IMG/VR virus record: IMGVR_UViG_2698536570_000004
Strand: one strand, 5' to 3'
Length of the DNA stretch: 10,474 nt
Origin: a virus
Taxonomy: Duplodnaviria > Heunggongvirae > Uroviricota > Caudoviricetes
The notes below the pieces were generated by a model, which worked only from the letters and a program-made list of their open reading frames with translations, was not told the DNA's origin and ran no database searches. A program made the position numbers and the translations under genes. Below are positions 1-10,474 of the stretch, in pieces. Position 1 is the stretch's first letter, and every line of letters starts with the position of its first letter.

Positions 1-711
1 CTGACTGAGCCGCACTTCAGAGATGAAAAACCGTTTGACGCCATCGTATCTAACCCACCGTATTCGGTGAAATGGATTGGCAGCGATGACCCGACGCTGA
101 TTAACGATGAACGTTTTGCCCCGGCTGGCGTTCTGGCCCCCAAATCCAAAGCTGACTTTGCGTTTGTATTACATGCGCTGAACTATCTTTCTGCCAAAGG
201 TCGTGCTGCGATTGTCTGCTTCCCGGGCATTTTTTACCGTGGCGGCGCGGAGCAGAAAATCCGTCAGTATCTGGTTGAAAATAACTATGTCGAAACCGTG
301 ATTTCACTGGCACCGAACCTGTTCTTTGGCACCACCATTGCCGTAAATATTCTGGTGCTGTCTAAACATAAAACGGATACCAAAGTTCAGTTTATTGACG
401 CCAGCGAACTGTTCAAAAAAGAGACTAACAACAACATCCTGACCGATGCCCATATCGAAAAAATTATGCAGGTATTTTCCAGCAAGGAAGATGTTGCTCA
501 TCTGGCGAAATCTGTCACGTTTGAGACCGTTGTCGCGAATGACTATAACCTGTCGGTAAGCAGCTATGTGGAAGCGAAAGATAACCGCGAAATTATCGAT
601 ATCGGTGAGCTGAATGCTGAGCTGAAAACCACGGTCAGCAAAATCGACCAGTTGCGTAAAGATATTGATGCAATTGTGGCTGAAATTGAAGGCTGCGAGG
701 TGCAAAAATGA
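1..711 (+). CDS. hsdM: Type I restriction-modification methyltransferase subunit HsdM, C-terminal part (5' end lies upstream of the window)
   Basis: Frame 1 is open from nt 1 to TGA at 709-711. Translation from nt 1 gives [25 protein letters not shown]..., with the N6-adenine methyltransferase NPPY motif at nt 52-63. The stop overlaps the hsdS start (ATGA at 708-711). The 67..711 ORF in the track is the same frame starting at an internal GTG. Confidence 0.9.
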
Positions 712-1964
712 GCGAGTTAAGTTATCTGGAAAAATTGCTGGATGGGGTTGAGGTTGAGTGGAAACCCTTGAAGGATGTTTGTGATTTTAAAAATGGATTT
801 GCATTTAAAAGCAGCTTATTTAAAGAAACTGGGTTACCGATAGTCAGAATCACAAATATAGATGGATTTAATGTTGACTTAGATGAGGTGAAATACTTTT
901 CACTAAATGATTACAAGGAAGATTTATCCTCCTTTGAGGTATCTATGGGAAATATATTGATTGCAATGTCAGGTGCCACTACAGGAAAGGTAGGAATTTA
1001 TAAAAAAGGAACAAAATGTTATCTTAACCAACGGGTTGGGAAATTCATACCCAAAGAAAATATTCTAAACAATAATTATTTATACCATTTTTTATTGTTA
1101 AATACAGAGACTATTTATATCCTCGCCGGGGGCGGAGCACAACCGAACCTAAGCTCAAATGCATTGATGTCAAAACTACTCATCCCAATCCCTTGCCCGG
1201 ATAATCCGGAAAAATCCCTTGCCATCCAGTCTGAAATCGTTCGGATTCTGGATAAATTTACTGCACTTACCGCTGAGCTTACCGCTGAGCTTAACATGCG
1301 TAAAAAACAGTACAACTACTATCGCGACCAATTGCTGAGTTTTGATGAGGGTGAGGTTGAGTGGAAGGCATTGGGAGAAGTAGCCAAAATACAACGAGGG
1401 GCATCCCCCAGACCAATTGTTAATTATCTTACTGAACAAGGAAATGGTATCCCATGGATTAAAATCGGAGATACTATACCCGGCTCTAAATACATTGACA
1501 AAACCTTACAAAAAATAACTGCAGAGGGTGCCCAAAAATCGCGAATCTTGAACCCCGGTGATTTCGTCATTTCTAACTCTATGAGCTTTGGCAGACCATA
1601 TATTTTAAGGATAACCGGAGCTATCCATGATGGATGGGCATCAATCAGCAATTTTGGTGAAAAATTAAATGCTGATTATCTGTATCACTATCTTTCATCA
1701 AAAAAGGTGAAAAATTATTGGGAAAGTAAAATCAATAGCGGGTCGGTCAGTAACTTGAATGCAGATATTATAAAAACATTACCAGTGCCATTGCCTGATA
1801 AACAGAAACAAGAGCGAATATCTGCTCTGCTCGATAAATTCGACACCCTGACCAACTCCATCACCGAAGGTCTTCCGCGTGAAATCGAGTTGCGCCAGAA
1901 ACAATACGAGTACTATCGTGATTTACTGTTCAGTTTCCCAACACCTGAAACTGTCAGTAATTAA
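708..1964 (+). CDS. hsdS: Type I restriction-modification specificity subunit HsdS (418 aa), type IC-like
   Basis: ATG at 708 overlaps the hsdM stop. The protein has the HsdS architecture: two variable target-recognition domains separated by a conserved central region (...[33 protein letters not shown]) and a matching C-terminal conserved region (...[36 protein letters not shown]). The tandem TAEL repeat is the signature of the EcoR124I family as I recall it. Confidence 0.92.
1266..1293 (+). repeat. Tandem 12-bp repeat CTTACCGCTGAG x2 plus partial third unit (CTTA), encoding LTAELTAEL in the HsdS central conserved region
   Basis: Direct reading: 1266-1277 and 1278-1289 are identical 12-mers in frame with hsdS, and 1290-1293 repeats the first 4 nt. 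Confidence 0.9.
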
Positions 1965-2085
1965 TTGACCATTGCTACCGACCGGGCCACCTTAACACCC
2001 GGTCTGTATATAGACTATTTTTTACGCGCCGGAAGTCACTCTTAACGCCCTTCCGGCCCTTGCCAGGCGGCACAAAGGATGCGCT
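1965..2085 (+). promoter_or_regulatory. hsdS-hsdR intergenic region: probable hsdR promoter region, two stem-loops and the hsdR ribosome-binding site
   Basis: The 121-bp gap holds stem-loop 1 (GACCGGG 1980-1986 / CCCGGTC 1998-2004) and stem-loop 2 (GCCGGAAG 2028-2035 / CTTCCGGC 2050-2057). Both loops contain CTTAAC. There is a TATATA at 2007-2012, a T-run at 2018-2023, and AAGGAT 6 nt upstream of the ATG at 2086. No clean -35/-10 pair could be fixed by eye. Confidence 0.4.
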
Positions 2086-5000
2086 ATGACTCATCAAACA
2101 CACACCATTGCTGAATCCAATAACTTTATCGTCCTTGATAAGTACATCAAAGCTGAGCAAACAGGCGACAGCTACCAGAGCGAATCGGACCTGGAACGTG
2201 AACTGATTCAGGACCTGCGGAATCAGGGCTATGAATTTATATCCGTAAAATCTCAGTCGGCTATGCTGTCCAATGTTCGGGAACAGCTTCAGAGCCTCAA
2301 TGGTGTGGTGTTTAATGACAGCGAGTGGCGGCGTTTCACGGAGCAGTATCTGGACAACCCGAGCGATGGCATTCTGGATAAGACCCGTAAAATCCATATC
2401 GACTATATTTGCGACTTTATTTTTGATGACGAGCGACTTGAGAACATCTATTTGATAGATAAAAAGAATCTCATGCGCAATAAGGTGCAGATTATCCAGC
2501 AGTTTGAACAGACGGGTTCTCATGCTAACCGTTATGACGTCACGATCCTGGTTAATGGCTTACCACTGGTACAAATCGAACTGAAAAAGCGCGGCGTGGC
2601 GATTCGTGAGGCTTTCAACCAGATACATCGTTACAGTAAAGAGAGTTTTAACAGCGAAAATTCCCTGTTTAAGTATCTGCAACTGTTTGTCATTTCTAAC
2701 GGCACCGATACCCGTTATTTTGCCAACACAACAAAGCGCGATAAAAACAGTTTTGACTTCACCATGAACTGGGCGAAATCAGACAACACGCTGATTAAAG
2801 ACCTCAAAGATTTTACCGCTACCTTTTTCCAGAAACATACTCTGCTTAATGTTCTGGTGAACTACAGCGTTTTTGACAGCAGTCAGACGCTACTGGTGAT
2901 GCGACCGTACCAGATTGCTGCCACCGAGCGCATTCTGTGGAAAATTAAGAGCTCCTTTACAGCGAAGAACTGGTCAAAACCGGAAAGCGGTGGGTATATC
3001 TGGCACACTACCGGTTCTGGTAAAACCCTCACCAGCTTTAAAGCCGCGCGTCTGGCAACAGAGCTGGACTTTATTGATAAAGTCTTCTTCGTGGTCGACA
3101 GGAAAGACCTCGATTACCAGACCATGAAGGAATATCAGCGTTTTTCGCCAGACAGCGTCAACGGCTCGGAAAATACCGCAGGCCTTAAACGAAATCTGGA
3201 TAAGGACGATAACAAAATTATCGTCACTACTATTCAGAAACTCAATAACCTGATGAAAGCAGAAAGCGACCTGCCTGTATATAATCAGCAAGTGGTGTTT
3301 ATATTTGATGAATGCCACCGCAGCCAGTTTGGAGAAGCGCAGAAAAACCTGAAGAAGAAATTCAAACGCTATTATCAGTTTGGTTTTACCGGCACCCCTA
3401 TTTTCCCGGAAAACGCCTTAGGCTCAGAAACAACCGCCAGCGTATTTGGTCGTGAATTGCATTCGTATGTAATTACCGATGCGATTCGTGACGAAAAAGT
3501 GCTCAAATTCAAGGTGGACTACAACGATGTGCGGCCACAGTTTAAGTCTTTAGAGACAGAAACTGACGAGAAAAAACTGAGTGCGGCTGAAAATCAGCAG
3601 GCGTTTCTTCATCCCATGCGTATTCAGGAAATCACGCAATATATTCTGAATAATTTCCGCCAGAAAACCCACCGTACCTTCCCTGGCTCAAAAGGTTTTA
3701 ATGCTATGTTGGCAGTGAGCAGCGTGGATGCTGCAAAAGCCTATTACGCGACGTTTAAACGGTTACAAGAGGAAGCAGCTAATAAATCGGCCACCTATAA
3801 ACCGCTGCATATTGCGACAATCTTCTCCTTTGCTGCCAATGAAGAACAAAATGCCATTGGTGAAATTTCCGATGAAACTTTTGATACCAGCGCAATGGAC
3901 AGCAGTGCTAAAGAGTTTCTTGATGCTGCAATTCGTGAGTATAACAGCTATTTTAAAACTAACTTCAGCACCGACAGTAACGGTTTTCAGAACTACTATC
4001 GTGATTTAGCCCAGCGGGTTAAAAATCAGGATATCGATCTGTTAATTGTCGTGGGGATGTTTTTAACTGGCTTCGATGCTCCAACATTGAACACGCTATT
4101 CGTCGATAAAAACCTGCGTTTTCACGGCTTGATGCAGGCATTTTCCCGCACCAACCGTATTTATGATGCAACTAAAACCTTCGGTAATATCGTCACTTTC
4201 CGGGATCTGGAACGCTCAACTATTGATGCCATAACGCTGTTTGGTGACAAAAATACCAAAAATGTGGTTTTAGAAAAGAGTTATGCAGAGTATATGGAAG
4301 GCTTTACTGATGCTGCCACTGGTGAAGCTAAACGCGGCTTCATGACAGTAGTTTCAGAACTGGAACAACGGTTCCCTGACCCTACCAGTATTGAAAGTGA
4401 AAAAGAGAAGAAAGACTTCGTTAAACTGTTTGGTGAATACCTGCGTACCGAGAACATCCTGCAAAACTATGATGAATTTGCCACGCTGAAAGCCCTGCAA
4501 CAAATCGATCTTAGCGATCCTGTTGCAGTAGAAAAATTCAAAGCAGAACATTATGTGGATGATGAAAAGCTCGCTGAATTGCAAACAATTCGTCTCCCTG
4601 CTGATCGCAAGATTCAGGATTATCGTTCTGCCTATAACGATATTCGCGACTGGCAGCGCCGTGAGAAAGAAGCTGAGAAAAAAGAGAAATCAACCACTGA
4701 CTGGGATGACGTAGTTTTTGAGGTCGATTTGCTGAAGTCTCAGGAAATAAACCTGGATTATATCCTTGGACTGATTTTCGAACACAACAGACAAAATAAA
4801 GGCAAGGGCGAAATGATCGAAGAGGTCAAACGCTTAATTCGTTCAAGCCTAGGGAACCGTGCTAAAGAGGGCCTGGTGGTCGATTTTATTCAGCAAACGA
4901 ACCTGGATGATTTACCGGACAAAGCCAGCATCATTGACGCATTCTTTACGTTTGCTCAACGCGAACAGCAACGTGAAGCAGAAGCATTGATAAAAGAAGA

Positions 5001-5202
5001 AAATCTCAATGAAGATGCAGCAAAACGCTATATTCGCACGTCTTTAAAACGCGAATACGCCACCGAAAATGGCACAGAATTAAACGAAACATTACCAAAA
5101 CTTAGTCCGTTGAATCCGCAATATAAAACGAAAAAACAGGCAGTTTTCCAGAAAATCGTCTCGTTTATTGAGAAGTTTAAAGGCGTAGGCGGAAAAATAT
5201 AG
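2086..5202 (+). CDS. hsdR: Type I restriction enzyme R subunit HsdR (1038 aa), type IC-like
   Basis: A 3117-nt ORF with an RBS. It has an N-terminal PD-(D/E)xK-like nuclease region (...[19 protein letters not shown]...), Walker A TGSGKT (about nt 3010-3027), a DEAH-type motif II as DECH (nt 3307-3318), and a TGTP motif III. Its length and co-linearity with hsdM-hsdS fit the EcoR124I-type HsdR as I recall it. Confidence 0.95.
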
Positions 5203-5218
5203 CCCAATTCGTATTTTT

Positions 5219-5246
5219 CTTGCGGGTTCTTAATTAAACCCGCAAG
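5219..5246. other. Stem-loop between convergent hsdR and a minus-strand small ORF (10-bp stem CTTGCGGGTT / AACCCGCAAG, loop CTTAATTA); possible non-canonical terminator
   Basis: A perfect 10-bp inverted repeat read directly. No U-run follows on either strand (TTTTT precedes it on +), so its terminator function is uncertain. Confidence 0.3.
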
Positions 5247-5281
5247 AGACCGTGGGGTTCCAAATGGCTAATATACTCCCC

Positions 5282-5368
5282 TTACCCATGCGCGACAATG
5301 CTGCCAAAAGTGATAGAGAACAGCCAGAAATAGATCGCGGCCATAATGATTTTGAATGCCGTGTTCAT
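5282..5368 (-). CDS. Candidate small hydrophobic protein (28 aa, MNTAFKIIMAAIYFWLFSITFGSIVAHG); small membrane peptide or type I toxin-like
   Basis: ATG at 5368 (minus) is preceded by AGGAG with an 8-nt spacer. The 28 codons are strongly hydrophobic and end at TAA (5282-5284). A possible sigma70-like promoter (TTGATA, 17 nt, GAAAAT) lies upstream on the minus strand around 5425-5455. A 41-codon ORF on the opposite strand (5264-5389) overlaps it, so the coding strand is not settled. Confidence 0.3.
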   Translation of the reverse strand: MNTAFKIIMAAIYFWLFSITFGSIVAHG

Positions 5369-5395
5369 ATCTTCAGCTCCTGTGATTGATTTGAT

Positions 5396-5430
5396 ACATG
5401 CCGCGCCCCTTGCGGCATGTTTTTATTTTC
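5396..5430 (+). terminator. Rho-independent terminator-like hairpin on the + strand (stem ACATGCCGC / GCGGCATGT followed by TTTTTATTTTC)
   Basis: A 9-bp GC-rich stem (5396-5404 / 5412-5420) with a 7-nt loop, followed directly by a T-rich run to 5430. On the minus strand the same hairpin would sit in the 5' UTR of the small ORF at 5368. Confidence 0.55.
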
Positions 5431-5456
5431 ACCTTCTCTGCTTTAAATATCAAGAT

Positions 5457-5469
5457 TTATTAGAGCAAT
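5457..5469 (+). repeat. 13-bp motif TTATTAGAGCAAT, copy 1; followed by TATTGCT, making the palindrome AGCAAT-T-ATTGCT (5464-5476)
   Basis: Exact 13-mer shared with 7599-7611 and, as reverse complement, with 7546-7558. It overlaps the stop codon of the minus-strand phosphatase gene. Confidence 0.7.
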
Positions 5470-5975
5470 TATTGCTGATGAAGAAGCGCGTTTTCATACT
5501 CCCTGACCATTAACGTAAGCACGCCGTGACGCCTGAAAACACGCGCCACTTCAATCTTATCTTCCAGCGCGAACGCAATTTTGCTTAGACCAATTTTCTT
5601 AAGGAGATCAATCTTTGCTGGACCGTCATTTCTGTCATCGGTGGCAGGACGCATAGATAGCAAAGGCTCATCCCCGTTTGTTACGTACTTTCGCAGCCAG
5701 GCTCATGTTTTATCCCTTGCGATCTCACAGCGCCCGGTTACAAACCAGACCGTGTAAACGTTATATAACTGGCGCACAATATCAATAACTGGAGTTATGG
5801 GAGTATCAGTGTCACAGGCGAGATTAAACTCGTTCCAGTCCTTTGTTAATGCACCTTTACCTGGTGGCGGAAGCAAATGCAGTCTGTCTTCAGTTGCCTC
5901 TGATATTGTTCCATCAATATCAACTATGACGATATACGGACGTTCATGGTGTGCGTGTTGGTTGAAAATACTCAA
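5469..5975 (-). pseudogene. HAD-superfamily phosphatase resembling phage polynucleotide kinase 3'-phosphatase domains, interrupted by an in-frame TGA
   Basis: TTG start at 5975 preceded by a strong SD (GAGGAGG). The N-terminal part has HAD motif I (IVIVDIDGT) and, from recall of T4 Pnk, a ...CDTD..TGR... segment. The frame hits TGA at 5703-5705 and then continues in the same frame to TAA at 5469-5471, with a DDR-containing C-terminal part. The track shows this as two ORFs (5703..5975 and 5469..5663) in one frame. Confidence 0.55.
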
Positions 5976-5992
5976 ATGCCCTCCTCATTGGA

Positions 5993-6029
5993 CGAAAAAA
6001 ATGCTGGTGGGACGCACTCCACCAGCATT
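5993..6029 (-). terminator. Rho-independent terminator for the minus-strand 420-aa gene (stem AATGCTGGTGG / CCACCAGCATT followed by a U-run on the minus strand)
   Basis: An 11-bp perfect inverted repeat (6000-6010 / 6019-6029) with an 8-nt loop. The A-run at 5995-6000 on + gives a T-run immediately 3' of the hairpin on the minus strand. It lies 20 nt downstream of the stop at 6049-6051. Confidence 0.65.
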
Positions 6030-6048
6030 AAAAGTGACACTGTAACTA

Positions 6049-7311
6049 TCAGCGAACGTAAATAGTACCGCCGTTCTCTTTTTCCCATGCATCGCTACGT
6101 GCATAGCAAACATCGAGAAGTCTTCTTGCCGCAGTTTCTTCTAAACCCAATTCAACAACCAACTGCTCATGACGGCGGGTAACTACATCAAATAGGCTAT
6201 GCAGCCCTTTATTGGCCAGTTCATCAATGAATTCCGGTTCGAACGGTAGCTCTGCATCTGCCAACATAACCTCTTGCGCCCACTCGACACGGCGGACCAG
6301 TTCCGGGCGGCGGCTTTCCATCTCTTTACAGATCATTTCATGGAAGAACTCTACCCAACCTTCCGGCTGGAACTCGCGGAAAATGGCCAACGGCTGGAAG
6401 TTTGGCATCAACCATTCGTTGATACGGATATCAATGGCATAGCCCATGTCACAGCAGAACTGATAAGCAAAGTCCAGCTTAGAAACGATATAAGGACGCT
6501 CGTTATTGAACTCTTTAGGCGATGAGATTCCATAAGCCAGGAGGCGCGGGAAGAATGAGATTTGCCCTAACGTCGGATGGAGTTTGCTTGCAGGAAAACG
6601 GCGCTCAGTAATGCCATACATTTCCTTCTTGAGCATCGCAAATTTAGCATTTTCATTAACCAGCTCGGTAACCTCTGCTTTTTTATTAGCAAATGCCACG
6701 CGCGCCTCGCTTGCATCTTTAATAGCCTTTTTGAGCTGTTGGTTAAGGTCGGCGACCTGCTTACGCAGTTCCTGGCGCTCGCTTTTGGCTTTGTTATAAC
6801 GTTTCTCAAGGTTAAAAGGATCAAGTTTCATGATCTCTTTATATTGAGATTTTAGTGTTGAAATCTGTGAATTCCGCAGCTCAACCATAGCGGTCATTTC
6901 ATTGAGTTTTGTTTCCAACTCAATGCTTATACGTTCGGCATTATCAGCACGCTGGTTGGCGTCATGCGTCGCATCGTCGATGGCATCCTGTTGCTGGCGT
7001 TTCAAATGCTCAATTTGCAGCTGAAGATCTTCAATTTCTTTACCCTTCAGACCGAGATCCAACTGCATATTTTCAGCTGCATCTACCAGGTCGTTATGGC
7101 TATCAGCTTCTGCGTTATAAACATCAATAAGCTGTGCGTGAAGCATCTCAGCTGACTGAACCGCATTATCAAAAAAACGTGCTGTGAGGTCATCACAACT
7201 AACGCGGCGTTGCGCGGCTCGGATGTTCTGAATAATGGCCGGGATACCGGCATTCAGGACGTCAGGGATAGATACATTTTCGATTGATTGGTTTTGTGCT
7301 GAAGTGCTCAT
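6049..7311 (-). CDS. Hypothetical protein (420 aa): N-terminal coiled-coil region of about 230 aa rich in Q/E/K/A, and a C-terminal globular domain of unknown function
   Basis: A long ORF with the ATG at 7311 one nucleotide downstream of the preceding gene's stop, and its own terminator after the stop. No catalytic motif recognised. Confidence 0.75.
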   Translation of the reverse strand: MSTSAQNQSIENVSIPDVLNAGIPAIIQNIRAAQRRVSCDDLTARFFDNAVQSAEMLHAQLIDVYNAEADSHNDLVDAAENMQLDLGLKGKEIEDLQLQIEHLKRQQQDAIDDATHDANQRADNAERISIELETKLNEMTAMVELRNSQISTLKSQYKEIMKLDPFNLEKRYNKAKSERQELRKQVADLNQQLKKAIKDASEARVAFANKKAEVTELVNENAKFAMLKKEMYGITERRFPASKLHPTLGQISFFPRLLAYGISSPKEFNNERPYIVSKLDFAYQFCCDMGYAIDIRINEWLMPNFQPLAIFREFQPEGWVEFFHEMICKEMESRRPELVRRVEWAQEVMLADAELPFEPEFIDELANKGLHSLFDVVTRRHEQLVVELGLEETAARRLLDVCYARSDAWEKENGGTIYVR

Positions 7312-7312
7312 T

Positions 7313-7531
7313 TCAAAGTTCCGTATTAGCTTGTGCTTCGGTCATTTTTCCTAAGTATGAAGGTGGAAGGACTACGCAATTTGTATCCAGTCCCTCACCA
7401 ATGGCAGCCTGTAAAATTCTGGCTAAGGTGAGTCTCTTGTTGCGATACCGGGTGATGACATGCCTGATATCGCCGGACGGTGTAACAAAGGCGATCAGCC
7501 AGTAGTGATATTTCCGTCGGAATGGCCACAT
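7313..7531 (-). CDS. Hypothetical small protein (72 aa)
   Basis: ATG at 7531 preceded by AGGTG with a 4-nt spacer; the stop at 7313-7315 lies 1 nt from the start of the 420-aa gene, suggesting co-translation. No recognised family. Confidence 0.5.
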   Translation of the reverse strand: MWPFRRKYHYWLIAFVTPSGDIRHVITRYRNKRLTLARILQAAIGEGLDTNCVVLPPSYLGKMTEAQANTEL

Positions 7532-7545
7532 AGTGCACCTTATGG

Positions 7546-7558
7546 ATTGCTCTAATAA
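7546..7558 (-). repeat. 13-bp motif, inverted copy (ATTGCTCTAATAA on +, which is TTATTAGAGCAAT on -)
   Basis: Exact reverse complement of the 13-mer at 5457-5469 and 7599-7611. With the 7599-7611 copy it forms a 13-bp inverted repeat flanking a 40-bp spacer. Confidence 0.7.
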
Positions 7559-7583
7559 AAAACGTGATGAGTGTACATCACGT
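7555..7583 (-). terminator. Candidate rho-independent terminator on the minus strand after the 233-aa gene (stem ACGTGATG / CATCACGT, loop AGTGTA, then T-run on the minus strand)
   Basis: An 8-bp perfect inverted repeat (7562-7569 / 7576-7583). The A-run at 7554-7561 on + gives TTTTTTATT directly 3' of the hairpin on the minus strand. Confidence 0.45.
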
Positions 7584-7598
7584 ATTAAAAATATGGAA

Positions 7599-7611
7599 TT
7601 ATTAGAGCAAT
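7599..7611 (+). repeat. 13-bp motif TTATTAGAGCAAT, copy 3
   Basis: Exact direct repeat of 5457-5469. It lies immediately 3' of the stop codon (7613-7615) of the 233-aa minus-strand gene. Confidence 0.7.
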
Positions 7612-7612
7612 A

Positions 7613-8314
7613 TTATTCTAATTCTCGCTCAAAAAACGAGCTAATGAGGGGAAGCCAATCCTCTGACACTTCGCGAGGCCGCGGTTTGCCGTGGAAAAAG
7701 ATTATTCGGCAGTCCTTTGGTAATGTCCCATTCCCCCTGGAGTAACGCGCGCTCGCATATTTTGAACCAGGTTCCACAACATCGGCCTTGTAACTTACAA
7801 ACCATCCTGGATACAGATCCTGAAATGCTGGTGTGTCATCGCCCATAACCTTCCGCAAGAACCCCTGATCCCCCCAGCACTCAGTTGTAACACAACGAGC
7901 AATCCAACCTTCCGGATCTTGCCAGAATGCACTCCAGATATGCGCTTTTACACTATTTGGTATCCACAGAGCACCGCTGCCACGATATTGTGGATGGTAA
8001 AAATCCCTAAGCATGGTGAAGTTGGTTGGTGGATTCTCAAGAATTGGGCGTATATCACCGGCAATAACCGTGTCCAAATCCAGATAGAACAGATCATCGG
8101 TTATATCAGGTCGGAACAACTCGATTTTCGCCCACCAGCCACGGCACTTTTGCCACTGGTTGATTAATGGGACAACCTTAACGCCTGGCACATGTAAACG
8201 CTTCAGGTCTGTCAGGCAAATAATTTCATAGCCTTTTGGCAGTTGATTAACCAGCCACTGCACATCGGAAGCGTTATAGTCACCACCAGAGCGAAGAACT
8301 AAAGCAATCTTCAT
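7613..8314 (-). CDS. Hypothetical protein (233 aa), possibly a nucleotide-sugar glycosyltransferase-like enzyme (acidic LDLD, DxD-like motif)
   Basis: ATG at 8314 overlaps the upstream phosphatase stop (ATGA). It contains ...[13 protein letters not shown]... and a C-terminal ...[10 protein letters not shown]... segment. The glycosyltransferase call rests only on the DxD-like motif and is weak. Confidence 0.7.
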
Positions 8315-9003
8315 GCTGCACCATCACCTTTCACTTTCATCAATGTCAGGTTTCCGCAAAATACGGCACCAGTGTCGATATAATGCTGATTCCAGAATGT
8401 CTTCGGGCTTTTCACCGGAGTGTGACCAAAGATAAAACGATCTGCGCCCGAAATTTCGCCACCAATATCATCCATCGAATCACTGATACGCTCGCGCGCC
8501 CAGACAACGTTGAAAAGCGGCACCTCCTTACCGAATTGATATTCATTATCCGGATAGTCGGCATGAGCTATAACGATAGTTTCTTGCCCGGTGTTCAACT
8601 CAATGATATAGGGCAGTCGTCTTACCAACTCCACCAGCGCCCTGGCTAATATTTCCTGATCAGCGTCCAGCATGAAGAACCATTGACCGCCATTCATTAG
8701 CCAGTTATTCACGTTGCCATCAGGACTTAACGCATCAATCATCAGCCGCTCATGGTTGCCCATAACCGCTCTGAACCATGGCATCTGCAATAGCTCCAGG
8801 CATTTAACATTTTCGGTGCCGCGATCGATAAGGTCGCCGACCGATATCAGTAAATCCTGCGCCGGGTCAAAATCCACACGATGGAGTTCGGACATCAGTC
8901 TGGTGTAGCAACCATGCAGATCACCAACAACCCAGACATTCCTGTATTTGGTCCCGTCGATACGGTGATAAATTGTTGGTGCCATCATGTATTCTTCAGC
9001 CAT
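8311..9003 (-). CDS. Ser/Thr protein phosphatase of the calcineurin-like metallophosphatase family (lambda NinI / E. coli PrpA-PrpB-like)
   Basis: Metallophosphatase motifs GDLHG, GDLIDRG and GNHE, and a C-terminal ...[17 protein letters not shown]... The overall pattern matches lambda NinI-type phosphatases from recall. The likely true start is the second ATG pair (M6/M7, about 8985-8988), which overlaps the upstream gene's TGA. Confidence 0.88.
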
Positions 9004-9611
9004 TCTTTAAGAGTCATCTGCGGAATACCTCCCATTTTCCCGCATGAAACAACGTCAATCTGTTCACGCGCAGACTGGAATAACAAAGGCAGGTGACTTA
9101 GATTTTTTGGCGTGCCGCCGGAGTGAACGCGTGGTTCTTGCGTAGCGTCAACGCCCACCAGGGCTACATGTTTGAATCCGATATGGAAAGCCAGGTTCAG
9201 AGCACCATATGCACTATTGCCGCTGGCAATTTCATTCTCATCTTCGCAAAGGCCGAAATGTGCGGACCAGCGCCACGCCCACCACTCGGGAGAATTCGTA
9301 TTTTTTGGCTCCGTGCCGCGCTCAGCCACACGACGGAAGCACAGAACGCCGTCTCTGACCTCACGTTCTTTAACATTGGGTAGCGCCATGCAATAACAAA
9401 CACCACGGCGACGGCGGCCACGACCAACGCGCCGCATATTGTCTGGCGATGGATCAAGGGTGAAAAAATAAGAAGCGCGGTTAAGCCAGTCGATGGCCCC
9501 ATTGACCGCTATAATCGGCACTCCGCGCGGCGCAACAAAGTTTGCGGCGCTAGGGCCACTGCCGACGATAATAACGCGATCACTGCCTCTAAATTTATTC
9601 TTGGGAAACAT
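8985..9611 (-). CDS. Rossmann-type protein, paralog B (208 aa): N-terminal VGSGPS glycine loop, IIAVN strand, [26 protein letters not shown] motif; carries an Arg-rich insert ([11 protein letters not shown])
   Basis: ATG at 9611. The motif order matches the sialyltransferase GT42 / MptE-like (DUF115) pattern as I recall it. It is paralogous to the adjacent upstream gene, and the Arg-rich segment is encoded at about 9402-9434. Confidence 0.7.
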
Positions 9612-10171
9612 TGAATTGCACTGCTCCTACTTGCATTCAAAATATGTAAATCTGCGTGTTTTTTGCGGGTATCCAGGAACTGCTGTTGCCATTTTGAAAT
9701 AGACACCTGCGTTGGATTCCGTAGTGCTTGAGGGTGTGCTCCATGCCAATGAAGGCCGTTTTGCAGAGAACAGTCATAGCCGACTAATACAACTACTTCA
9801 GCCCCTGATTCAGCCGCCAGACTGATAGCCTGCGCGCCGCTATTAACCCCTTCAGCCGGTCCACAATATCGCCTGTACTCCAACGAAAATGATTTCGCCG
9901 CCGCCAGGTTGGCTGTCACTTTGCGGAATCTCCCTCCCGGTATGGTGGATCCGTATTGCTTCCACCATGACAAATCACCGGCGTATAAGGCATAAATGTC
10001 ATCGAACATCTGCCAGGAATTGTTAACCGCGATGATTGAACAGCCAGTTTTTTCTATAGCAGCACAGTCCTCACGAGTGAGTGACGGACCGCTACCGACA
10101 CAAAAAACAGTCCTAGTCGCCCTGGGTGGTATGTTCATTCTCAGCTGCAAATTCAGCCTCCAGGCGAGCAT
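9509..10171 (-). CDS. Rossmann-type protein, paralog A (209-220 aa): VGSGPS glycine loop, IIAVN, GVNSGAQAISLAAESGAEVVVLVGYD
   Basis: The ORF runs from 10171 to TAG at 9509-9511. The more likely start is the internal ATG at 10136-10138 (MNIPPRATRTVFCVGSGPS), which matches the spacing in paralog B. Its 3' end overlaps the start of paralog B by 103 nt in another frame. Confidence 0.7.
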   Translation of the reverse strand: MLAWRLNLQLRMNIPPRATRTVFCVGSGPSLTREDCAAIEKTGCSIIAVNNSWQMFDDIYALYAGDLSWWKQYGSTIPGGRFRKVTANLAAAKSFSLEYRRYCGPAEGVNSGAQAISLAAESGAEVVVLVGYDCSLQNGLHWHGAHPQALRNPTQVSISKWQQQFLDTRKKHADLHILNASRSSAIQCFPRINLEAVIALLSSAVALAPQTLLRRAECRL

Positions 10172-10268
10172 TCATTTCAGCGATTACCGGGTCCACTACA
10201 GCATCTGCTTCCTGTTCATTACGCGGCATGATCGATGCCAGCGATTCATAATTAGCCTTGGATGACAC
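10113..10268 (-). CDS. Hypothetical small acidic protein (51 aa, MSSKANYESLASIMPRNEQEADAVVDPVIAEMNARLEAEFAAENEHTTQGD)
   Basis: GTG at 10266-10268 preceded by GGGAGA with a 6-nt spacer. The stop overlaps the start region of paralog A. The track ORF 10113..10310 is the same frame extended upstream to a GTG with no RBS. Confidence 0.45.
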   Translation of the reverse strand: MSSKANYESLASIMPRNEQEADAVVDPVIAEMNARLEAEFAAENEHTTQGD

Positions 10269-10334
10269 GATTATTCTCCCGATGTTAATGTGCGCTATAT
10301 CAAAGAGCACACATGCACTAATTAATTTATTATT

Positions 10335-10474
10335 TCACGCAGCGTACAACCACTTGTCACCGTTCAATACATGCTCAATAGCCTCACCCTTTTTAAGGCT
10401 CATGTATTCCAGGAGGCACTGTTGCAAATAGTCGGTGGTGATAAACTTATCATCCCCTTTTGCTGATGGAGCTG
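10335..10474 (-). CDS. Hypothetical protein, C-terminal 45 codons only (gene continues beyond the right edge)
   Basis: The minus-strand frame is open from the window edge to TGA at 10335-10337 (...APSAKGDDKFITTDYLQQCLLEYMSLKKGEAIEHVLNGDKWLYAA). No family recognised from this fragment. Confidence 0.4.
   Translation of the reverse strand, partial: APSAKGDDKFITTDYLQQCLLEYMSLKKGEAIEHVLNGDKWLYAA

Follow-up and report, generated by a model that had tools for sequence, protein, structure and literature searches.

The window analysed here, a stretch of 10,474 nucleotides from the virus record IMGVR_UViG_2698536570_000004 (IMG/VR), opens with the genes of a type I restriction-modification (R-M) system. 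This raises the questions of which type I family the system belongs to, whether it is likely to restrict DNA, how its nuclease gene is expressed and on which replicon it travels. The reading that we favour, to which we assign a probability of about 0.9, is a type IC (EcoR124-family) cassette carried on a P1-derived plasmid at the pmgT-humD site, which would function by an EcoR124I-like mechanism.

Organization and family assignment of the hsd genes

The window holds the distal part of a 6.2-kb cassette whose genes are encoded on the plus strand in the order hsdM-hsdS-hsdR. The earlier note described the R-M locus as complete, which does not hold for hsdM: the window start cuts this gene, leaving its last 236 codons and the stop codon (positions 1–711). 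Frame 1 is open from the first base to the termination codon at 709–711. The N-terminal half of the gene product (284 residues) and the promoter lie outside the window, and in the nearest public relative the full gene is found at positions 7155–8711 of locus L001; a cassette leader of 105 bp precedes hsdM. The hsdS gene (708–1964) codes for the specificity subunit of 418 amino acids (PADLOC Specificity_I, 4e-132). Its initiation codon (708–710) overlaps the hsdM termination codon in a 4-nt ATGA arrangement at 708–711, as the note had read, and hsdS is translationally coupled to hsdM. It is separated by a gap of exactly 121 bp (1965–2085) from hsdR (2086–5202), which encodes the motor and nuclease subunit of 1038 amino acids (TIGR00348 hsdR, 766 bits) and is preceded by its own RBS, an AAGGA sequence at 2075–2079 spaced by 6 nt from the hsdR ATG.

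The assignment to type IC was borne out by comparison with the EcoR124 subunits. The HsdM fragment features the catalytic motif NPPY at its residues 18–21, matches the TIGR00497 hsdM profile (270 bits) and aligns to residues 285–520 of the 520 residues-long EcoR124II M protein (E = 6e-150); 230 of its 236 residues (97.5%) are identical to HsdM of an EcoR124I-allele plasmid. HsdR gives a full-length match to the EcoR124I HsdR structure (PDB 2w00; 2286 bits) and shares 1027 of 1038 residues (98.9%) with HsdR of the EcoR124I-allele plasmid. None of the 11 substitutions falls in the motifs, which are all present (nuclease D151 and E165-x-K167, QxxxY, GSGKT, DECH). In HsdS the N-terminal, central and C-terminal conserved regions are near-identical to those of EcoR124 HsdS and include the TAEL repeat discussed below. 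Judged from their sequences, the subunits are very likely to interchange with those of other type IC family members.

Placement in another type I family (IA, IB or ID), which the earlier note had named as the outcome that would speak against type IC, is countered by the 97–99% identity to the EcoR124 subunits, while HsdM of the type IA system EcoKI matches the fragment with E = 2e-5 only. EcoKI follows the chemistry and the logic of subunits common to type I enzymes, but its genes are arranged in the order R-M-S and its similarity to the window is only remote. A locus of the EcoprrI type would have the same HsdM/S/R family and gene order, with prrC inserted between hsdS and hsdR. No other arrangement is as frequent in a set of 76 type IC loci from other species: PrrC occupies that place in 43 of them and the gap is shorter than 200 bp in only 8. 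However, the 121-bp gap of the window holds no ORF of at least 50 amino acids and PrrC is easily recognized in related loci (PADLOC PrrC, 2e-146), in line with the claim that a prrC-like gene is missing here. Both an EcoprrI-type locus and another type I family are thus so improbable that they can be set aside. The closest characterized system is the type IC prototype, EcoR124I from plasmid R124 (PDB 2w00, 7bst), which shares the M-S-R order, the ATGA overlap, the 121-bp gap and the two TAEL repeats. EcoDXXI and EcoR124II, type IC systems also borne by plasmids, are members of the same family with the M-S-R order and without prrC.

The system is an ordinary and well-known one, in which only the pair of recognition domains is rare. 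A type IC hsdR was found in 1325 of 5426 complete E. coli genomes. The statement that type IC systems are typically carried on plasmids or mobile islands fits this locus; in the complete E. coli genomes, chromosomal places of type IC hsdR (864) slightly outnumber plasmid ones (665).

Specificity subunit and predicted mode of action

Both target-recognition domains of HsdS differ from those of EcoR124 HsdS. The target of this system is therefore not the EcoR124I sequence GAA(N6)RTCG. Domain 1 covers amino acids 19–152 (762–1163) and its DNA is present in 14 of the 5426 E. coli genomes; domain 2 covers amino acids 222–368 (1371–1811) and occurs in 13. The two are found together only in AW1.7 and ETEC1731. 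Each also occurs in other combinations: among the nearest 120 HsdS clusters, domain 1 is joined to a different second domain in 45 and occupies the C-terminal position in 5, while domain 2 is joined to a different first domain in 32. A search for a characterized specificity among the best 120 clusters returned none, all being named only “restriction endonuclease subunit S”.

The central conserved region carries two tandem copies of the 12-bp unit ACCGCTGAGCTT (1269–1292), encoding TAEL-TAEL, as seen in the sequence and in its alignment with EcoR124 HsdS. The number of TAEL repeats determines the length of the target spacer in type IC HsdS. EcoR124II, EcoDXXI and EcoPrrI have four extra residues at this place relative to EcoR124I, the first two through a third TAEL repeat, and recognize targets with N7 instead of N6 spacers (PMC12707154, Table 1). 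The locus had been described as EcoR124I/EcoDXXI-like; because it has two repeats, only the first half of this description applies to the spacer length. By analogy, the two repeats predict an N6-type, EcoR124I-like spacer, assuming that the half-sites are placed in the EcoR124I register.

Near-identity to EcoR124I, which is structurally solved and biochemically studied, is the basis of the mechanism that we propose. HsdS and two HsdM subunits would form the methyltransferase, modifying at N6 one adenine in each strand of a bipartite target. Addition of HsdR would yield an enzyme that does not leave an unmethylated target, draws in DNA at the expense of ATP and cleaves it at a distance. Becoming established in a new host would depend on an assembly pathway with a cleavage-incompetent intermediate containing one HsdR, and would not involve ClpXP, on which restriction alleviation of EcoKI depends. 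Alleviation through failure of assembly is described in PMC12707154.

The hsdS-hsdR gap and expression of hsdR

The 121-bp gap contains two inverted repeats in addition to the RBS. Hairpin 1 (1976–2008) pairs 1976–1986 with 1998–2008, and hairpin 2 (2028–2057) pairs 2028–2035 with 2050–2057 (GCCGGAAG-N14-CTTCCGGC). The earlier note called this spacer structured: the repeats are real, but the fold energy is only modestly low (z = −1.8), 10 of 200 shuffled sequences folding equally well. The covariation signal across 10 related spacers is weak: 82% of the cells are paired, and four pairs changed on both sides, a number reached by 28 of 500 shuffles. The stems of hairpin 2 are constant in all eight E. 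coli and Klebsiella-phage sequences, except for one base in strain E50, and its loop varies. The spacer has equal length in the EcoR124I-allele locus, with 112 of 121 positions identical; of five further E. coli chromosomal loci, four have a 121-bp spacer and one has a 116-bp spacer. A Rfam scan of the whole window gave no match.

The note also assigned to hsdR a separate regulatory region and hence two transcription units, an arrangement that belongs to the literature on EcoR124I. A weak promoter-like sequence, TTAACA-18-TATTTT, is found on the plus strand at 1992–2021. Promoter-like matches in positions 1–6100 amount to 11, with 11.5 expected by chance, and the best one in the gap scores 9/12, so sequence statistics do not establish a separate regulatory region. 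The alternative is one transcription unit for all three hsd genes, in which hsdR would be expressed mainly by read-through from the promoter upstream from hsdM and the gap would supply nothing but an RNA element and an RBS. The chance-level promoter matches are compatible with such a unit, no canonical terminator was found after hsdS, and three distant type IC loci (L009, L029 and L044) have a single operon with overlapping hsdS and hsdR. It is nevertheless opposed by the conservation of the gap, in length and in most of its sequence, across the E. coli type IC loci, and by EcoR124I, whose hsdR reportedly has its own promoter. We consider a single unit unlikely, though it is the most serious of the competing explanations. 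Transcription of hsdR is probably driven by a promoter within the conserved gap and would end at 5396–5420, where the first canonical intrinsic terminator-like site downstream from hsdR is found on the plus strand in the P1-derived flank; it consists of a 10-bp stem and, after it, TTTTTATTTT.

Between hsdR and this flank lies a cassette-specific tail of 75 bp (5203–5277), which is conserved in the IncF EcoR124I-allele locus. It contains an inverted repeat with an 11-bp stem (5218–5228/5237–5247). This hairpin (5218–5247) was rejected as a terminator, a T-run being absent 3′ of it on both strands.

The P1 context of the cassette

The cassette ends at 5277/5278. From there to position 10,414 the window is phage P1 backbone in minus orientation, 96.2% identical to P1 84482–79349. 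The guess of the earlier note about the replicon thus holds, the phage-like genes being those of P1, with P1-derived plasmids and P1-like phages ranking first among the matches. Alignment to P1, together with PHROG matches to PmgS and others, identified a 28-amino acid ORF, the C1 operator OpmgT with the PpmgT promoters, pap, pmgS, pmgR, pmgQ, ppp, pmgP, pmgO, pmgN and a fragment of pmgM. A 420-amino acid minus-strand ORF (6049–7311) was considered as a candidate integrase whose attachment site would follow hsdR, but this was rejected: the ORF is P1 PmgS and there are no tRNA genes.

The best match to the full window is the plasmid of E. coli AW1.7 (NZ_CP073625.1; 99.8% identical). The cassette (L001 7049–13277) stands there in place of P1 84483–87969, i.e., the pmgT-humD segment. 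It is bounded by phd/doc on one side and pap on the other, and the genes to its left are phd/doc, pdcB, lpa, pacAB and c1. P1 itself has a 3.5-kb block of its own at this site (junctions 84482/84483 and 87969/87970), whereas here the 6.2-kb hsd cassette is found on the opposite strand. The segment from pmgT to humD is the highly variable region 8 of P1-like phage-plasmids (PMC9603915). The cassette is also present in two deposited genomes of P1-like phages, and phi456 is an example of a P1-like phage with it. In the literature searched, no type I system is described directly for a P1-like phage. The association is shared by related systems. IncF plasmids with the EcoR124I allele have the same phd/doc left flank, with the 75-bp tail and P1 sequence at the right, but IS1 and IS5 cut their copy off, while the window retains more of the P1 backbone. 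The P1 GenBank record states that the hsd loci of EcoDXXI and R124/3 are bordered by P1 sequence, which in the case of EcoDXXI comprises phd/doc and pap-side sequence.

The state of the surrounding DNA bears on whether the system is still active, as the genes could be a decaying remnant, restricted to modification or silent, in a degenerate plasmid. The AW1.7 plasmid is an IS mosaic that keeps only part of P1, with no annotated tail or head genes; in the window the neighbouring pap has a nonsense codon, pmgM is cut by IS26 at 10,415 and hsdM is visible only in part, so that it may be interrupted upstream of the window. Against decay, the frames of both hsdS and hsdR are open over their full length and no catalytic motif is missing. 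The nucleotide sequence of hsdR is 100% identical to the AW1.7 copy, and hsdM of that plasmid is annotated as intact; the 17 differences from the plasmid, all in hsdM, leave its reading frame open. The full HsdM of AW1.7 is identical at 513 of 518 residues in the comparison with EcoR124 HsdM. Loss of restriction is accordingly improbable, and an EcoR124I-like cassette with its three subunits remains our preferred reading.

PpmgT and the C1 operator are kept (about 5423–5469) and are now oriented antisense toward the hsdR 3′ end, with no canonical terminator found between them in the antisense direction. One may speculate that restriction is tied to the lysogeny/lysis switch, C1 inactivation releasing convergent transcription that lowers HsdR, with hairpin 2 as a second control point. 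We regard this as quite unlikely; if true, the decrease in HsdR might spare replicating, undermethylated phage DNA.

For the family, the locus adds one specificity allele to the best-studied group of type I systems and otherwise little beyond annotation. That the known type IC plasmid systems travel with P1 DNA beside the phd/doc addiction module is already present in the P1 GenBank entry. In the source strain, unmodified DNA that enters the cell and has the target motif would be restricted and the plasmid would impose its methylation pattern. The HsdS alleles provide a clean example of how a new specificity arises by reassorting two recognition domains.

Type IC assignment and gene layout

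Comparison of the three Hsd proteins with EcoR124I, the type IC prototype, argues for type IC, and the assignment made in the earlier note stands. HsdR (2086–5202, plus strand, 1038 aa) matches the sequence of the EcoR124I HsdR crystal structure (PDB 2w00) across all 1038 residues (2286 bits) and is identical at 1027/1038 positions to HsdR of a plasmid bearing the genuine EcoR124I specificity allele. Its translation contains all expected motifs, namely the nuclease motif (D151, E165-x-K167), QxxxY, GSGKT and DECH, none of which is touched by the 11 substitutions. The HsdM fragment, which features NPPY, is identical to HsdM of the same plasmid at 230 of 236 positions, while HsdM of the type IA system EcoKI matches it with E = 2e-5 only. 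The N-terminal, central and C-terminal conserved regions of HsdS align near-identically with EcoR124 HsdS, TAELTAEL included. NCBIfam and PADLOC calls are concordant (hsdR, hsdM, Specificity_I), and database comparison placed neither HsdR nor HsdM in the IA, IB or ID families. We infer the function of the locus from this near-identity to EcoR124I, whose mechanism is summarised in PMC12707154.

The ORF list and translations confirmed the gene boundaries proposed earlier. hsdS (708–1964, plus strand) starts with an ATG overlapping the hsdM stop codon at 709–711 (ATGA, 708–711), and is separated by exactly 121 bp (1965–2085) from hsdR, which is preceded by AAGGA at 2075–2079. Only the description of the locus as complete has to be given up, because the first plus-strand ORF is open in frame 1 from base 1 with no start in the window and, by protein comparison, corresponds to residues 285–520 of the 520-aa EcoR124 HsdM. 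Full-length hsdM is visible only in the nearest public relative, a plasmid of E. coli AW1.7 (NZ_CP073625.1; positions 7155–8711 of its locus record).

The hsdS-hsdR intergenic region

The gap is also 121 bp long in the EcoR124I-allele locus (112/121 positions identical) and in four of five E. coli chromosomal type IC loci, the fifth having 116 bp. The earlier note called it structured. It does contain two inverted repeats (1976–2008 and 2028–2057), but its fold energy (z = −1.8) and the four pairs changed on both sides across the spacers, a count reached by 28/500 shuffles, give modest support to an RNA structure overall. In an alignment of 10 spacers the first repeat shows a single G-C to A-U exchange, found in two loci. 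The stems of the second (GCCGGAAG-N14-CTTCCGGC, in the hsdR leader) are constant in all eight sequences from E. coli and Klebsiella phage, taken together, except for one base in strain E50, and its 14-nt loop is highly variable. The repeat may act as an RNA hairpin or as a palindrome to which a protein binds. Of the promoter-like matches, TTAACA-18-TATTTT (1992–2021) is the best and scores 9/12, and such matches occur in the region in chance number, so the case for an hsdR promoter comes from the EcoR124I literature: EcoR124I hsdR has a separate promoter, and the near-identity of the two gaps makes one plausible here.

No ORF was found in the 121-bp gap, in agreement with the earlier statement that no prrC-like gene is present. 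The locus differs in this respect from EcoPrrI; it is established that prrC can be lodged inside a type IC locus (PMC12707154). Eighty loci of other species (L003–L082; HsdR at 76–87% identity) were searched for hsdM, hsdS and hsdR. The gap, measured in the 76 loci with both hsdS and hsdR located, is shorter than 200 bp in 8 and at least 900 bp in 61. In 43/76 it encodes one protein family of 372–539 aa, a representative of which matches PADLOC PrrC at 2e-146 and Pfam AAA_13. Further loci carry RhuM, YhcG/DUF1016 (YhcG nuclease), Fic, RelA_SpoT, Bro-N or Schlafen-type genes, which lie in this gap or separate hsdM from hsdS. Outside E. coli, additional genes within the operon are found in most type IC loci. 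The "empty" EcoR124-type layout is a minority in the wider family; it is found in all E. coli loci fetched, and gaps of 122–125 bp separate hsdS from hsdR in the closest enterobacterial loci, those of Erwinia and Serratia.

A cassette in P1 DNA

The phage or plasmid surroundings suspected earlier were identified. The window is 99.8% identical over its whole length to the 105.6-kb AW1.7 plasmid; all 17 differences fall in 169–558, and the two sequences agree at every position in the remaining 10 kb. This 390-bp segment of hsdM looks as if a short stretch had been recombined in from a different type IC hsdM allele. Positions 5278–10414 are 96.2% identical to phage P1 84482–79349 and cover pap, pmgS, pmgR, pmgQ, ppp, pmgP, pmgO, pmgN and part of pmgM. 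To the left of the cassette, the AW1.7 plasmid keeps the P1 gene order with phd/doc, pdcB, lpa, pacAB and c1. The 6229-bp hsd cassette takes the place of P1 84483–87969, the segment from pmgT to humD, and lies on the opposite strand; PMC9603915 lists the replaced segment as "variable region 8" in P1-like phage-plasmids. The P1 GenBank record places the sequences that flank the EcoDXXI and R124/3 hsd loci at exactly these positions of P1, which was confirmed for the EcoR124I allele: two IncF plasmids carry pdcA-doc-phd, hsdMSR, a 75-bp tail, about 84 bp of P1 and IS1. The cassette is also present in two deposited P1-like phage genomes (vB_EcoM-673R5 and phi456).

The AW1.7 plasmid is an IS-riddled remnant with no annotated virion genes. 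Besides P1 DNA it carries ttr (tetrathionate reductase), ptxD (phosphite oxidation), an rpoH copy, McrBC-like genes and many IS26, IS1 and IS5 (records L083/L084, outside the window). An IS26 end (GGCACTGTTGCAAA..., 10415–10474) truncates pmgM, with the same junction in that plasmid. pap (P1 3'-phosphatase; 5469–5975, minus strand) has a nonsense codon at arginine 91 of P1 Pap and is a RefSeq pseudogene in the AW1.7 plasmid.

The cassette-specific tail 3' of hsdR holds an inverted repeat with a perfect 11-bp stem (5218–5247), kept in the IncF EcoR124I-allele locus. It was rejected as a canonical terminator, a T-run being absent behind the stem on both strands; the first canonical terminator-like site after hsdR lies at 5396–5420. 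The window still has the C1-repressor operator OpmgT (Op88) of P1 together with the PpmgT promoters (about 5423–5469, minus strand). With pmgT replaced, these now point antisense toward the hsdR 3' end, a direction in which no canonical terminator was found. A 28-codon minus-strand ORF (5282–5368), preceded by a strong ribosome-binding site (AGGAG), codes for a hydrophobic peptide (MNTAFKIIMAAIYFWLFSITFGSIVAHG) for which no PHROG match was found. It is intact just upstream of pmgT in P1, where it is unannotated.

Abundance and specificity

At a threshold of at least 80% identity to this hsdR, matching DNA is present in 1325 of 5426 complete E. coli genomes; the matches lie at 864 places on chromosomes and 665 on plasmids. 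Both HsdS recognition domains differ from those of EcoR124. Domain 1 DNA occurs in 14 and domain 2 DNA in 13 of the 5426 genomes; AW1.7 and ETEC1731 are the only strains with both. Comparison with the 120 nearest HsdS clusters gave 45 with domain 1 only, 32 with domain 2 only and two with both; domain 1 is in the C-terminal position in five. Judged by this distribution, the domains are each rare and reassorted among alleles. The exact HsdS protein is present on 21 contigs in public databases, and a near-identical one on 91. None of the 120 clusters has a characterised name that would point to a target sequence.

As regards TAEL repeats, the earlier likening to EcoR124I and EcoDXXI holds for EcoR124I only: HsdS has two, as in EcoR124I, where the spacer is N6 and 7 bp lie between the methylated adenines, whereas EcoDXXI, like EcoR124II and EcoPrrI, has four residues more and an N7 spacer (PMC12707154, Table 1). 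Apart from completeness, the observation and interpretation in the earlier note were right. The locus adds a new specificity allele to a family that is very well known, and its context was already on record.
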